Source: Escherichia coli (GTDB lineage: Bacteria > Pseudomonadota > Gammaproteobacteria > Enterobacterales > Enterobacteriaceae). Taken from it: a stretch of DNA of 64,000 bases. The notes beneath the pieces are model-generated. The model was not told the origin of the DNA. It made no database searches and was given only the letters and a program-made list of their open reading frames with translations. How positions within the stretch are numbered: the first letter of the stretch is position 1; each line of letters starts with the position of its first letter. This document shows, in pieces, positions 34,995 through 39,566 of the stretch. The translations under genes were made by a program, and so were the position numbers. The stretch lies in NCBI RefSeq assembly GCF_029227855.1, contig NZ_CP074356.1. One strand, 5' to 3'.

Positions 34995-36287
34995 TTACCT
35001 GTTTTCCCATAATTTCAGCATCGCTTTGTGCTCTTCCTTAAGCACAATCCGCGAGCGTCTGGCTCGAATATAACTAATCGCTTCATCAACGGTTTTACAA
35101 TGTCCGTAACATAACAGCCATGCCCCCACTACCAGCGCACTGCGCGATAATCCCAACGCGCAATGGACCAGAACGCTGCCTTGCTCTTCGCGTAATGTTT
35201 CCAACATCGCCACGGCCTGTCGGAGCTCCCCCTCTTCCGGAACCACCAGATCCAACATCGGTACACAAAAATAGAGTCGATCTTTTGTCGCTCGTCCGCG
35301 AGGGAATTCAAAGGTGACGTCCAGAACCGCATTCTGTGCCGGAATATGTCGTGGAAACGCCCCTAAATAAACACCAGCAGTAATTTTGCTCACCGGCTCC
35401 AGGCGAAGGCAAACCAACGCATAGACAGCCACATCCCGATGCGCCATGGCAATGTCAGCCAGTAAACGGCGGGCGGGAGTTTCCCTTGACTATCTTTACC
35501 TGTTGTTATCGCGCCAAGCCCACCGTACCCACGGCCAATAATGAGTAGCGATAATACTGGCCAACATAACCAGACTGACCACCATAACTGAAGCATTATC
35601 ATTAGCTCCATCAACACGAGCACGCGCCTGCGACATATGGCAGTGCTATTTTGATTCGACGTTGATCAGGTTTCTGATAATTCCAACGACGGTCTACGGG
35701 CACCATCCAGTCAATTAACATACCTACCGCCAGCCCTGTGATGACATCAATAAAATGATGCTGCCAGGTCGTCAGCGTCGAAATGGCGATGAGTAAAAAC
35801 CATCCGCCGCAGACTTTACGCCACCTCACAGCCAGATGCTGACGAAAGTGACGCCAAAGTAGCCAGCAGAGAATAATATGCAGCGAAGGAGACTGGTTAT
35901 AAGGCAGATCAAACAATTCAAGTTGCGAAAATAACCATCCTGTCACCCCACTCACTTCAGGACGGATAAAACTAAACTTCAGCGGGTAGAGAAAAAACCG
36001 CAGCAGGCCATTACCGTTGCCAGAATAAGCCGGTGGACCAGACGGCGCTGCTCAAATGTCGAGCTACAAACGAACAGCGAAAATCCATATAAAAGATCCA
36101 GACTCCAGTAAGGAACAATAGTCCAGGGAAGAAAAGGGATCGCCGTTTCCCAACCGAATACCTGACTGGGGATATCATGGTTGTTAAGATCCTGAGTCGC
36201 GGTGAATTGATTAAGAAATCCATATGTGAAGAAGAAAAACGGGGCCAGCAACAATAACCAGCCAGCTCCTTGTAGTAATACGTTCCG
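34995..36287 (-). pseudogene. ynbD: ynbD (PAP2 plus dual-specificity phosphatase membrane protein) split into four ORF fragments in three frames; pseudogene or homopolymer sequencing errors
   Basis: ORFs 35979..36377 (frame 2), 35611..35955 (frame 0, PAP2 motifs PSLH and HHFID), 35390..35623 (frame 1) and 34995..35447 (frame 2, CX5R phosphatase motif HCALGLSRS) tile the position of the ~430-aa K-12 gene; the first junction sits at an A6 run at 35992..35997; 5' boundary approximate. Confidence 0.5.
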
Positions 36288-36291
36288 GCGT

Positions 36292-38049
36292 TCAGTTATC
36301 ACGACGCACCGCCATCGAAACCGTAAAAATGCCCCACTCATCAATCCGTTGTGTGCATTTATCGAATCCGGCATCATGCACGAGCGAATCCATCTCCCCT
36401 TGAGAACGCACGCGCATTACCCACGGTTTACCATCTTTATGACTGGTTAACACCCCGGCAATCAGCTCCAGTTGTGGGTGCCACGGCTGCCCGGTGTAGA
36501 TGAGAATGCCACCCGGTTCGATGGCATTCGCCAGACCTGCGAGTGAGTTTTTCACCGGCTCATTTTCGGGAAAAAGCTCATACAGACCAGACACAATCGC
36601 CAGCGTAGGCCGCGGAGTTAACGCGCTGAGTTCCTCCGGGTTAAACGCATCGCCCTGTTCAAAACGCGCCCGACCAGACATTCCCCGTTGGGCAATCATC
36701 TCTTGCCCTTGTGCAACATTTACCTCACTGTAATCACGTAATAAAATATCGCTTACGGCAGGCTCGTTTACCAGCGCATCCAGTACATAGCGCCCATGCC
36801 CTGCGGCAATGTCAACCACGCGGACGGCTAAACCTTTGGCGTGGAGATCGGCAACGGCTTGTTTAATCAGCATGTGTAAATGGGTTTTGCGCTGGCGAAT
36901 ACCGCGCCAGCCAACACTGTTCAGGTAGATTTTGTCGATAAAGCGACCGAATGCATTACTGCCTTGCGGTTGATTTTGATAGACATAATCCAGCGAACTG
37001 CCTGAATCAAAGCCGGTGCTCATTCCGAGATGCAGGCCCGCAGAGTGCGCCCCGAACAGTTTCATCGCCTTTCGCATAAAGCGATACGCCAAATCAACCG
37101 GCGATAACGGCACGGGTCCACCAGAAAGGAGCCGCCATCGATCCGCTGATGGTCCTGTGCGGTCTTCATGCTGATAATCAAATTTTTGCGACTTGTTAGC
37201 ATATAAACGGCTGATAAAGCTTTGCATTTTTTCAAATGCCTGCGCCCTGTTCTCTTCACCCAACGTGTCGTGATAAAAGCCTGGCAGCAGATGCAGCTCT
37301 TTCAGAGGACTACGTAAACGCTGATAAAAATCAATCTGCGGTTGGCGATGCACCACATAGTCATCGCCTGATATCAGAAGTTGCGTGGGGAGCGTAATCG
37401 CCGCCGCATCGCTAACAATACGTTCAGACGTTTTATAGAGATCGAGCAAGATATTGACGGCAATCGCCCGTGTGATCAGCGGATCATTATTGAAACTCGC
37501 CACCCGTTGCCGATCGTGGGTCAGATAACTCCCTTTCACATAGGAATTAATAAAAAACAGACCACGCAGACGATGCCATAACGCCAGCCCAGGACGTGCC
37601 AGCGGCACATACAATTTAACCTTAAAGGCCGGAGATGCCAGCACCAGTCCGCGAATAGCAGGCGCATAATCATGAACCCATGTGGCAACCAGCACTGCGC
37701 CGACGCTTTGCGCGATCACAACCACCTCTTCCAGTCCAACCTGGCTGTCGCTGGCAGCAAAACGGACAAATTCATCGACATCCTGCACTGAACGCGCAAG
37801 AGATGGGCTATAACCACGCGGCCCTGACGTTTTTCCATGCCCTCGGGCATCCCAGGCATAAAAAGCAGTATCTGGCATCGCCAGTTCATCAACGAGATGT
37901 TGTAGACGCCCGGAATGTTCATGACCGCGATGAAATAAGACTATGACCTTTTTCGCCCCTGGCTGTAAAGTGGGCCAGTGCCGATAAAACAACGCTGTAT
38001 TATCACTGGTGGTAAAAAAATGTTCCCCAGGGATGCGTGAATTTTCCAT
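36292..38049 (-). CDS. ynbC: YnbC, alpha/beta hydrolase fused to a class I SAM-dependent methyltransferase domain (585 aa)
   Basis: N-terminal hydrolase region and C-terminal methyltransferase-like region ([16 protein letters not shown]) in the translation. Confidence 0.85.
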
Positions 38050-38064
38050 TTTCTCTATTTTCCT

Positions 38065-38961
38065 TCAGTAACAGCAGTAGCGAATAAAATAAAAAAATAC
38101 CGGAGCGGTGAAAATTAATGAGTCAATCCTGTCAAGGAGTCCGCCATGTCCTGGTAATAGTTTTCCACTATCTTTAACACCAATATCTCGTTTGATGGCT
38201 GACATCACTACATCGCCGCAAAAACCACTAATACCAATTAACAAACCCGCTAATAATGCCTGTAATGTATCTAGCGGTGTCAGCAACGGTCCAATAATCA
38301 GTGACGCAATCATGGTGGTGATTACGCCGCCCATCAGACCTTCCAATGTTTTTCCCGGGCTGACTTTAGGGACCACTTTTCTTCTGCCGCAGGATTTTCC
38401 CCATAAATACTGTGCAATATCGTTTGACTCGGTTAATGCCAAAAGAAATAACACCAGTAACGCCCCGCCCTGGATATTTGTGGTTGGCAACATTAATAAC
38501 CAGGCGGCATGACTCAAGGCGAAAACGGTCATTATCCAGCCACAAAAAATGGCGCTCACGGTATGCAGAAAACCGGAGGGGTCACCCACTAAAACTCGCC
38601 AGGTGGCTAATATCAGAAACCCAGCCAAAGGTATAAATAACAGAAACAGCTCAAAGCAATTAAAACCGATAAGCAAATAGTTAAGAGGAATACCCCAATA
38701 TAACCAACGCGGAAAATGTACAGATATAAGCGTACAATATTCTTTCAATGCCAGAAAACTTATCAGCGCAAAAAACGTCAACGTCATCCAGCGTGGACCT
38801 GAAATCACCATTGAAAAACAAATGACGATGCCCCACCAAGTACGAATACGTAATGTAACTTCATCCCCTTTTCTCTCCGGTAACCGCCATACCAGAAAAC
38901 GGTTTATCAGCGTTGCTAAAATTAACAACGCGAAAAGTGTTGCCAGAGATTTTTCCAGCAT
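38065..38961 (-). CDS. ynbB: YnbB, CdsA-paralogue (phosphatidate cytidylyltransferase family), 298 aa
   Basis: Multi-TM ORF with CTP-transferase-1 family features; synteny. Confidence 0.85.
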   Translation of the reverse strand: MLEKSLATLFALLILATLINRFLVWRLPERKGDEVTLRIRTWWGIVICFSMVISGPRWMTLTFFALISFLALKEYCTLISVHFPRWLYWGIPLNYLLIGFNCFELFLLFIPLAGFLILATWRVLVGDPSGFLHTVSAIFCGWIMTVFALSHAAWLLMLPTTNIQGGALLVLFLLALTESNDIAQYLWGKSCGRRKVVPKVSPGKTLEGLMGGVITTMIASLIIGPLLTPLDTLQALLAGLLIGISGFCGDVVMSAIKRDIGVKDSGKLLPGHGGLLDRIDSLIFTAPVFFYFIRYCCY

Positions 38962-39566
38962 TATCTTTCAGCGCTCATAAGAAGCACACTCCGACAACGA
39001 TTAATCGCAGTCCAGAGAAGCAGAATTGAAGCAATGCTCCATAAAAGATTATTCCATTGCATCCATTGTGGATAAATGGCAATGGCCAGACCCCACAGAC
39101 CAAATATTAACGCGCGATCGCTTTTGCCAAATGGACCGACATAACTACGAATACCGTTAATCGTCTGCGCGAGTAAACCGCAAAACTCGGTCAATATGGT
39201 GCAAAATAACATGATTATCACGAGTGATGCGTTACTTTCCGGTAAAAATAAAAACGGTAAATAGAGCGCAATATCGGAAATAACATCGCCAGTCTCATTC
39301 AAAATCGCCCCAAGACGTGTTTGCTGATTGCACTCACGCGCCAACATGCCATCCAGCGCATTGAGTGCCATACGAATAAAAAGCACAATGGGCAATAGCA
39401 AAAAGAGGATGGGTTGTGCCACCAACATCAACAGCAATCCGCTAAGAAGAGAAAGTGCCAGTGCAGCAAGAGTGATGTGATTCGCTGTAACATGGTGCTT
39501 ATTAAGCCAAAACATCGTCGGCCTTAACAGCGACTGAAAGAGCGGTTTTATCTGGTAGAGCGTCAT
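38961..39566 (-). CDS. ynbA: YnbA, CDP-alcohol phosphatidyltransferase-family membrane protein (~201 aa)
   Basis: CDP-alcohol phosphotransferase motif region (DGMLAR...G...D) in the translation; first gene of ynbABCD. Confidence 0.8.
   Translation of the reverse strand: MTLYQIKPLFQSLLRPTMFWLNKHHVTANHITLAALALSLLSGLLLMLVAQPILFLLLPIVLFIRMALNALDGMLARECNQQTRLGAILNETGDVISDIALYLPFLFLPESNASLVIIMLFCTILTEFCGLLAQTINGIRSYVGPFGKSDRALIFGLWGLAIAIYPQWMQWNNLLWSIASILLLWTAINRCRSVLLMSAER

Follow-up and report, generated by a model that had tools for sequence, protein, structure and literature searches.

Which product do the genes ynbA, ynbB, ynbC, and ynbD of Escherichia coli make, and is the set complete in this species? 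We addressed this question in a 64-kb stretch of E. coli DNA (the window, at its full length), in which the four genes lie co-oriented on the minus strand between positions 34995 and 39566, according to the list of open reading frames (ORFs) and the gene names used by RefSeq. These limits match to the base: the stop codon of ynbD ends at 34995, and the ATG of ynbA begins with its A at 39566. A sequence-only reading of the window had described the genes as a lipid head-group enzyme set. This description is supported with three corrections: the set is a reduced one, YnbA is noncanonical, and the genes overlap only in part. The locus is an already annotated E. coli operon, and the finding, which is correct, is mostly existing annotation. 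New here are a ynbA-ynbC-ynbD core conserved in at least 574 species, an invariant, noncanonical NxxDG...NxxxD motif in YnbA, and a membrane domain of YnbD that is predicted to be structurally similar to SMSr and AUR1.

On balance, we consider it probable, by no means certain, that ynbABCD represents, in reduced form, a lipid cluster of wide conservation, and that its product is a minor, conditionally made phospholipid. The support comes from the domain families with their intact catalytic residues, the conserved linkage, the resemblance of YnbA to phosphatidylinositol phosphate (PIP) synthases, the modeled structure of YnbD, and ratios of nonsynonymous to synonymous substitution rates (dN/dS) of 0.06 to 0.41. 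The four genes are as follows (aa, amino acids):

ynbA, 38961..39566, minus strand: 201 aa, divergent CDP-alcohol phosphotransferase homologue (ORF list, Pfam PF01066)
ynbB, 38065..38961, minus strand: 298 aa, CdsA-paralogous CDP-diacylglycerol (CDP-DAG) synthase (Pfam CTP_transf_1)
ynbC, 36292..38049, minus strand: 585 aa, monoacylglycerol-lipase-type alpha/beta hydrolase (approximately residues 1-280) joined to a Methyltransf_20 class I S-adenosylmethionine (SAM) methyltransferase (approximately 285-585)
ynbD pseudogene, 34995..36302, minus strand: intact form of 430-438 aa with an eight-helix PAP2_3 membrane domain and a C-terminal dual-specificity phosphatase (DSP)

The domains that the sequence-only reading had named in the four proteins were each borne out by Pfam profile searches. 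It had also called the genes overlapping and co-oriented. The second part stands, and the first holds for some of the junctions: ynbA and ynbB share 1 nucleotide (nt; ATGA), 15 nt separate ynbB from ynbC, and an 11-nt overlap of ynbC with ynbD exists only when the upstream GTG serves as the ynbD start. The ATG of ynbA at 39566 is preceded by an AAGGA ribosome-binding site.

Conserved core and supply module

One genome per species was scanned with a YnbC alignment, and relatives were confirmed in at least 574 species. For locus comparisons by tblastn and ORF clustering, we used the best 80 of these at least 574 loci, all from other species, with flanks of 8 kb. They span Enterobacterales, Pseudomonas, many Betaproteobacteria, Bradyrhizobium, and one Acidobacteria genome. 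Both ynbA and ynbC were detected in all 80 loci, the PAP2 half of ynbD in 78 (tblastn), and ynbD in 77 (ORF clustering); the three genes adjoin one another. The ynbB gene was present in 62 loci, always beside a gene for a PlsC-like acyltransferase of 206-219 aa with HX4D and FPEGTR motifs (Pfam Acyltransferase, E = 6.9e-15). Loci without ynbB also lacked the acyltransferase, with the exception of locus L018, which has a partial acyltransferase match. Neither gene was found in the flanks in Proteus, Providencia, Xenorhabdus, and Morganella. The co-occurrence analysis that the sequence-only reading had proposed for Enterobacteriaceae was performed on this wider set of species, and it returned a core that is constant in 77-80 of the 80 loci, next to a ynbB present in 62.

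Downstream of ynbD, a gene for a small membrane protein (135-147 aa) was found in 50/80 loci by tblastn and in 60/80 by ORF clustering. The protein has no Pfam or NCBIfam match. Homology between its Citrobacter-type and Pseudomonas-type forms was not established directly (E = 0.006 over 12 residues); the two are joined by position and intermediate tblastn matches only. When all ORFs of the 80 loci were clustered, six broadly conserved families were obtained, namely YnbA, YnbB, YnbC, YnbD, the acyltransferase, and the small membrane protein. The other clusters were antisense shadow ORFs or genus-specific neighbors, and no locus contained a linked myo-inositol-phosphate synthase (MIPS) gene.

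The unit consists of a ynbA-ynbC-ynbD core, with or without the small membrane protein, and of a supply module formed by the acyltransferase and ynbB. E. coli has ynbB and lacks both the acyltransferase and the small membrane protein. Because these two are missing, the E. coli operon is a reduced set, from which both extra genes were lost. It is not the self-contained set that the sequence-only reading had proposed: the missing genes occur elsewhere in 62 and in 50-60 of the 80 loci, respectively, and no gene for a head-group precursor is linked. The two genes absent from E. coli can be seen at 7367-8026 and 11020-11427 of locus L005, and at 11025-11468 and 11478-12098 of locus L057.

Several single loci and entries deserve mention. 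In Phytobacter massiliensis (L013, 6449-10396), ynbA-ynbB-ynbC are followed by azoR and hrpA as in E. coli and ynbD is absent, which looks like a further step of cluster reduction. Citrobacter sp. Cu233 has two ynb-like loci, L006 and L018. The latter has no ynbB match, only partial matches to ynbA and the acyltransferase, and ynbD halves in different frames. Public protein sets contain fused YnbA-YnbC (P0185, 807 aa) and YnbA-acyltransferase (P0189, 436 aa) ORFs, which support functional coupling, although single entries of this kind may be gene-calling artifacts. A YnbB-YnbC read-through is present in one E. coli record (P0001, 889 aa).

Domain families and catalytic residues

YnbA matches the Pfam family PF01066 (CDP-OH_P_transf) with E = 1.6e-9 over model positions 3-148 of 152, which is weak for this family. 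Its best NCBIfam models are archaetidylinositol phosphate synthase (2e-21) and PIP synthase (1.2e-12), and the scores are far under the equivalog cutoffs (NF040950, 76.8 versus 180 bits; NF045883, 47.9 versus 170 bits). The match to pgsA models is also weak (1.1e-6; 29 bits versus a cutoff of 109). The closest solved relative is the PIP synthase of Mycobacterium tuberculosis (6h53, E = 1.4e-7). The family is defined by the signature D1xxD2GxxAR(x8)GxxxD3xxxD4; its four Asp residues bind two metals and act as base. Aligned to M. tuberculosis PgsA1, YnbA reads N69-A-L-D72-G-M-L-A-R...G86-A-I-L-N90-E-T-G-D94 and thus departs from the canonical signature. Of the claim that YnbA is a CDP-alcohol phosphatidyltransferase, the homology therefore holds, while the signature is NxxDG...NxxxD in place of DxxDG...DxxxD. 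Both replacements, D1 by N and D3 by N, are invariant in 80/80 orthologues, and the N/N pattern was seen in 100 of the 112 motif-bearing representatives of 50%-identity clusters (150 representatives listed). We found no description of this variant in the literature searched. A phmmer search with YnbA returned 1521 representatives at E <= 0.001 among 1.84 billion proteins. Because the search reaches so few proteins, the subfamily is placed far from the family mainstream; judged by its sequence, YnbA is a strongly conserved, distinct, and divergent subfamily.

Residues that bind the acceptor were also compared. In PgsA1, R94 directly follows a catalytic Asp and is conserved in enzymes that use inositol phosphate (PMC6506517). 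At the equivalent position of YnbA, residue 95, V or I was found in 78/81 aligned sequences and L in 2/81. The YnbA motif K148-S-D-R151 is invariant and aligns with ERPE-R155 of PgsA1 to within one gap position; R190 is invariant as well, lies outside the HMMER alignment, and is near R195 of PgsA1. K148, R151, and R190 are at or near the phosphate-binding residues R152/R155 and R195 of PgsA1 (PMC6506517). This R155/R195-type phosphate site is common to all solved CDP-alcohol phosphotransferases and is not specific for PIP synthases (PMC6506517). An assignment of YnbA as a PIP synthase was rejected on the basis of the cutoffs, the R94 position, and the N/N motif.

YnbB matches CTP_transf_1 over residues 37-295 (Pfam, 6e-69). 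It is not a CdsA equivalog, with 111 bits versus a cutoff of 385 and a match to the C-terminal half only (NCBIfam). For the other three proteins, too, NCBIfam yielded no match at the equivalog level. YnbB synthesizes CDP-DAG in vitro, and its overproduction raises the level of the glycolipid MPIase (PMC6362211, PMC7018664). Upon CdsA depletion it restores MPIase and not bulk phospholipid (PMC6362211, PMC7018664, PMC11413397). It does not complement a cdsA deletion, and strains deleted for ynbB show no phenotype (PMC6362211, PMC7018664). Cold is reported to induce YnbB along with CdsA (PMC6362211, PMC7018664, PMC11413397). The link between YnbB and CDP-DAG supply for MPIase, which the sequence-only reading named, is thus found in the literature (PMC6362211, PMC7018664, PMC11413397). 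In addition, ynbB came up in a transposon sequencing screen for synthesis of the enterobacterial common antigen form that is attached to phosphoglyceride (ECA-PG), yet it was dispensable for ECA-PG.

YnbC contains Hydrolase_4 (residues 32-266, 5e-68) and Methyltransf_20 (residues 275-582, 5e-151) domains and is modeled with high confidence scores by AlphaFold2 (predicted local distance difference test [pLDDT], 86.7; predicted template-modeling score [pTM], 0.89). The best Foldseek matches of the hydrolase half are the monoglyceride lipases Rv0183 (template-modeling score 0.86) and human MGLL, and a search of the PDB likewise gave monoacylglycerol lipases as the nearest solved relatives of the N-terminal half. 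S115 (in QSVG), D230, and H260 are invariant in 35 sequences and would form the catalytic triad of an alpha/beta hydrolase. In the same 35 sequences, the putative SAM motif D413-I-A-A-G-H-G419 (D413-x-A-A-G-x-G419) and D439 are invariant, as expected for a class I methyltransferase, and the methyltransferase half shows an alternating strand/helix pattern in the model. YnbC is 57-78% identical across Gamma-, Beta-, and Alphaproteobacteria and one Acidobacteria genome. A ynbC transposon mutant of E. coli showed a stress and polyphosphate accumulation phenotype, with the caveat that the insertion may have been polar on genes downstream (PMC2435150).

Intact YnbD has Pfam matches to PAP2_3 (residues 75-189, 2.4e-4), PAP2 (0.016), and DSPc (residues 306-429, 8e-26). 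The AlphaFold2 model (pLDDT, 93.3; pTM, 0.89) has an eight-helix membrane domain. PAP2 superfamily motifs are KxxxxxxRP (C1), PSGH (C2), and SRxxxxxHxxxD (C3). In YnbD, C2 (P131-S-L-H134) and C3 (Q173-H-H-x-x-D178) are invariant; C1 is reduced to R106, present in 90%, and an invariant P107. We counted the membrane domain as a member of the superfamily. Its modeled fold comes nearest to SMSr and AUR1, which are head-group transferases, and less near to PAP2 hydrolases; the sequence identity to SMSr and AUR1 is just 11-13%. In the C-terminal domain, whose nearest solved relatives are dual-specificity phosphatases, C376, G379, R382, S383, and D346 are invariant; together with the fold, they point to a DSP with an HCx5R(S/T) P-loop and a general-acid Asp. 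In 74 of 75 loci, a single open frame encodes the PAP2-DSP fusion. The only NCBIfam match of YnbD is NF009025 (PRK12361, a 546-aa "hypothetical protein" model), in which residues 208-427 correspond to the first 232 positions. This suggests that the last two helices and the DSP also occur as a module in another architecture. From the model helices and the positive-inside rule, the N terminus, the R/K-rich loops 148-157 and 193-205, and the DSP are predicted to be cytoplasmic. The PAP2 motifs would lie at periplasmic helix ends, as in other PAP2 membrane enzymes.

Disruption of ynbD in the window

The sequence-only reading held that the last gene of the set is disrupted. This was confirmed by RefSeq, which flags ynbD of strain JNEC-KY178 as "frameshifted", and by alignment with the intact alleles of strains AST215 and K-12, which revealed three deletions (-1, -7, and -1 bp). 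In the window, ynbD is split into four ORF fragments (36302 to 34995). The lesions and the two fragments that retain catalytic motifs are listed in the order of transcription:

ynbD lesion 1, approximately 35992-35997, minus strand: T7 run reduced to T6 at K-12 codon 96, upstream of the PAP2 catalytic motifs, with a stop at 35979
Out-of-frame ynbD fragment, 35611..35955, minus strand: still encodes the PAP2 motifs (ORF list)
ynbD lesion 2, approximately 35614-35620, minus strand: 7 bp lost within a short GCGCGTGC/GCGTGC direct repeat at K-12 codon ~222
150-aa ORF, 34995..35447, minus strand: whole DSP domain including the P-loop, stranded behind the frameshifts (ORF list)
ynbD lesion 3, approximately 35411-35414, minus strand: T4 run reduced to T3 at K-12 codon 292, with the DSP frame regained beyond it

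Each deletion shifts the frame, and their sum is 9 bp. When the nine bases were filled in, a stop-free ORF of 430 codons was obtained, with 412/431 positions identical to K-12 YnbD. Compared with three strains that have intact operons, the repaired ynbD has a dN/dS of 0.06-0.17, no higher than the 0.13-0.41 of ynbA, ynbB, and ynbC. Judging from these alignments, ynbD is a real pseudogene, and its inactivation is recent and strain-specific, because repair of the deletions restores the ORF and because the dN/dS of the repaired gene is not elevated over its neighbors. A fourth lesion was considered at the TTG start of K-12 and AST215, which is TTA here. It was rejected, since the upstream GTG, which is the annotated start in other intact strains, is present.

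Could the gene be intact in the living strain and the disruption an artifact of sequencing or assembly? Two of the three lesions are single-base homopolymer losses (T7 and T4), which are typical long-read errors, and the total of 9 bp leaves both gene ends in one frame. However, the 7-bp deletion is not of the homopolymer type and destroys the frame by itself. Moreover, ynbD is the sole pseudogene among the 63 annotated coding sequences of the window, which makes general assembly noise unlikely: none of the 62 others is frameshifted, and three events within a single 1.3-kb gene are not what random error would produce. We regard an artifact as very improbable. With ynbD broken, the strain of the window can carry out no more than the steps of YnbA, YnbB, and YnbC.

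Over the 4.8-kb stretch around the genes, the window shows 100% identity to E. coli JNEC-KY178 (chromosome NZ_AP045174.1), where RefSeq gives the same four gene names. For window positions 34900-39700, this strain is the sole genome with at least 99% identity; the next best E. coli reaches 98%, and most are at about 96%. The synonymous divergence from K-12 is 0.05-0.12, and the ynb allele of the window is therefore comparatively divergent. A consensus scan of 34800-39900 for promoters and terminators gave counts equal to those in shuffled sequence and thus no signal. Two IS200C-family tnpA copies are present in the window at 17688-18146 (minus strand) and at approximately 43232-43690 (minus strand), in the rimL/ydcH and pdxI/paaY gaps. 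The surroundings of the operon are:

ydbD-ynbA intergenic region, 39567..39734, minus strand: presumed operon promoter region
ydbD, 39735-42047, minus strand: neighbor of ynbA
azoR, 34336-34941, plus strand: neighbor on the ynbD side
hrpA, 30233-34135, minus strand: neighbor beyond azoR

Proposed pathway, alternatives, and known systems

The most likely function that we infer, for product and mechanism alike, is the synthesis and processing of a minor, specialized phospholipid. In the proposed order, YnbB would make a dedicated CDP-DAG pool, an activity known in vitro from the literature, and in other species the adjoining acyltransferase may feed YnbB. At the cytoplasmic face, YnbA would then link the phosphatidyl group with a head-group alcohol that is anionic and probably phosphorylated. 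The predicted cytoplasmic DSP of YnbD could remove the terminal phosphate, comparable to PTPMT1 acting on phosphatidylglycerol phosphate or PIP phosphatases acting on PIP. The soluble YnbC hydrolase-methyltransferase might deacylate the lipid, methylate it, or both. Finally, the SMS/AUR1-like PAP2 domain of YnbD, presumed to face the periplasm, would transfer or cleave the phospho-head group in the outer leaflet. A more specific version is tentative, and we give it limited credence: the YnbA subfamily would be a distinct phosphatidyl (or related) transferase, and the cluster would make an undescribed membrane lipid, for example with a methylated or pyrophosphate-linked head group. The two YnbD sites would act on this lipid from both sides of the inner membrane, with the periplasmic SMS/AUR1-like domain transferring the phospho-head group to an acceptor in the envelope.

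Several observations weigh against a head-group pathway. Two of the four signature Asp residues are missing from YnbA, and canonical two-metal chemistry cannot be assumed for it. All-ORF clustering detected a linked head-group precursor gene in 0/80 loci. The PAP2_3 match of YnbD is weak (2.4e-4), and a profile of this domain alone reaches just the C3 motif of LPP1 in the PDB (E = 0.025). The DSP of YnbD is not separable from protein phosphatases by fold, and the sole grounds for the predicted sidedness of both YnbD active sites are the positive-inside rule and the analogy to other PAP2 enzymes. For the methyltransferase domain of YnbC, a search against PDB sequences gave nothing under E = 0.2 and no informative relative. 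The genes are lost sporadically in E. coli without known consequence. Finally, we found in the literature searched no defined product of the ynb operon and no function of YnbA, YnbC, or YnbD. The absence of a defining paper agrees with the sequence-only reading, according to which the product of the operon is not established.

Such losses raise the question of whether the operon has become, in E. coli, a remnant that is silenced and decaying and has no current function, and in which the ynbD lesions are one more step of loss. Among 5426 complete E. coli genomes, 4785 match the region, 4275 of them with at least 80% of it, and 641 have no match. Gene status was read in nine annotated E. coli loci. 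AST215 has a ynbA frameshift (L002, 3136-3742), TOE51 an internal stop in ynbB (L086, 838-1734), and other E. coli have a split or partly deleted ynbC or internal deletions of about 1.6 kb from ynbA to ynbC. These independent lesions would fit a remnant, as would the genomes with no match or an incomplete region, the loss of the acyltransferase and the small membrane protein, and the loss of ynbD from the same azoR-hrpA context in P. massiliensis. In K-12, BglJ-RcsB, a regulator that counters H-NS repression at some targets, activates the ynbA promoter (PMC3950696); this requirement is consistent with silencing. Furthermore, ynbB is nonessential, and the knockout grows like its parent (PMC6362211). 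On the other hand, 4275 genomes keep most of the region, and of six strains drawn from different ranks of the matches, five (K-12, Nissle 1917, and three others) have all four genes intact. The dN/dS values of 0.06-0.41 indicate continuing purifying selection, the catalytic residues are all retained in E. coli, and the ynbC transposon mutant has a phenotype, with the polarity caveat given above (PMC2435150). The set is mostly maintained in E. coli and lost sporadically, and we consider a functionless remnant unlikely.

Two other explanations assign the operon to a known lipid. In one, it is a backup route for the essential MPIase: YnbB, perhaps with YnbA, would make GlcNAc-PP-diacylglycerol from CDP-DAG and N-acetylglucosamine (GlcNAc)-1-phosphate, and the other proteins would process it. 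The effects of YnbB overproduction and of YnbB upon CdsA depletion (PMC6362211, PMC7018664) and the joint cold induction (PMC6362211, PMC7018664, PMC11413397) speak for this route. As a speculation, YnbA with its N/N motif might accept a phosphate monoester and yield a pyrophosphate-linked lipid; lipid pyrophosphates are common substrates of PAP2 enzymes. However, deletion of ynbB leaves MPIase levels unchanged, and the effect was termed marginal or auxiliary (PMC6362211). MPIase is essential, yet the 641 genomes mentioned above lack a match to the region and others have it deleted or pseudogenized. Proteus, Providencia, Xenorhabdus, and Morganella keep ynbA-ynbC-ynbD without ynbB in the 8-kb flanks, a linked glycosyltransferase was found in 0/80 loci, and we found no published MPIase role for YnbA, YnbC, or YnbD. 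An MPIase backup covers the YnbB data and does not cover the conserved partners, the clusters without ynbB, or the frequent loss of the region; we consider it improbable. The other explanation is an inositol-phospholipid pathway like those of Bacteroides or mycobacteria, with YnbA as PIP synthase, the DSP of YnbD as PIP phosphatase, and the YnbD membrane domain as an AUR1-like phosphoinositol transferase. It draws on the top NCBIfam matches of YnbA (archaetidylinositol phosphate and PIP synthases), the mycobacterial PIP synthase as best solved relative, AUR1 and SMSr as best folds for the membrane domain, and the clustering of the same three activities in Bacteroides thetaiotaomicron (PMC9246714). 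The YnbA scores far under the cutoffs (76.8 versus 180 and 47.9 versus 170) argue against it, and so do V/I (78/81) or L (2/81) at the position equivalent to R94 (PMC6506517) and Asn at two signature Asp positions. Neither MIPS nor another precursor gene is linked in the 80 loci. These proteobacteria are not known as makers of ceramide or inositol lipids. Because of the missing linked inositol-phosphate synthase, the variant YnbA motif, and the extra enzymes, we did not file the cluster as an inositol pathway, which is decidedly improbable.

The locus matters beyond this species. The ynbABCD operon is among the few multigene lipid-enzyme sets of E. coli without an assigned product, and its core is present in hundreds of proteobacterial species, including members of Pseudomonas, Citrobacter, Proteus, Xenorhabdus, and Cupriavidus. 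Once its product is identified, bacterial phospholipid metabolism would gain a branch, and it would become clear whether MPIase synthesis is the main job of YnbB or a side activity. Experiments would better start from a fuller cluster than from that of E. coli, either from Citrobacter, where the acyltransferase and a gene for a small membrane protein downstream are present, or from Pseudomonas, with six genes; a strain with a broken ynbD is the least suitable one.

With its conserved cluster, the variant motif of YnbA, and a YnbD fold of the SMS/AUR1 type, the system is a variant of known phospholipid head-group pathways. The inositol-lipid cluster of B. thetaiotaomicron comprises the PIP synthase BT_1523, the PIP phosphatase BT_1525, the AUR1-like synthase BT_1522, and the MIPS BT_1526 (PMC9246714). 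There, as proposed for the ynb loci, one cluster encodes a homologue of CDP-alcohol phosphotransferases, a phosphatase for lipid phosphates, and a PAP2 transferase of the AUR1/SMS type. Unlike it, the ynb loci have no linked MIPS or precursor gene, their phosphatase is a Cys-based DSP fused to PAP2 and not of the PgpA type, YnbA has the N/N motif and no R94 equivalent, and a hydrolase-methyltransferase, an acyltransferase, and an own CDP-DAG synthase are added, in hosts not known for ceramide. With the housekeeping phosphatidylglycerol branch (CdsA, PgsA, PgpA/B/C) and PTPMT1, the ynb set shares the proposed order of CDP-DAG synthase, CDP-alcohol phosphatidyltransferase, and phosphatase. It differs in that YnbA matches pgsA models weakly (29 bits versus 109), YnbB cannot replace CdsA for bulk lipid (PMC7018664), the YnbD membrane domain is nearer to SMSr/AUR1 than to PgpB, and the housekeeping set contains no methyltransferase or lipase.

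The sphingomyelin synthases SMS1/2, together with SMSr and AUR1, resemble YnbD in its invariant C2 and C3 motifs, which contain His, His, and Asp (PSLH, QHHxxD). In contrast to them, YnbD is bacterial, is fused to a predicted cytoplasmic DSP, and shares only 11-13% identity, and its transferase chemistry is putative. With the MPIase pathway (CdsA/YnbB), the operon has in common YnbB itself, the studied paralogue that raises MPIase when overproduced. It differs from this pathway in that only YnbB is tied to MPIase, the conserved ynbB partners are lipid head-group enzymes and not glycosyltransferases, and the ynbA-ynbC-ynbD core occurs without ynbB in several genera.

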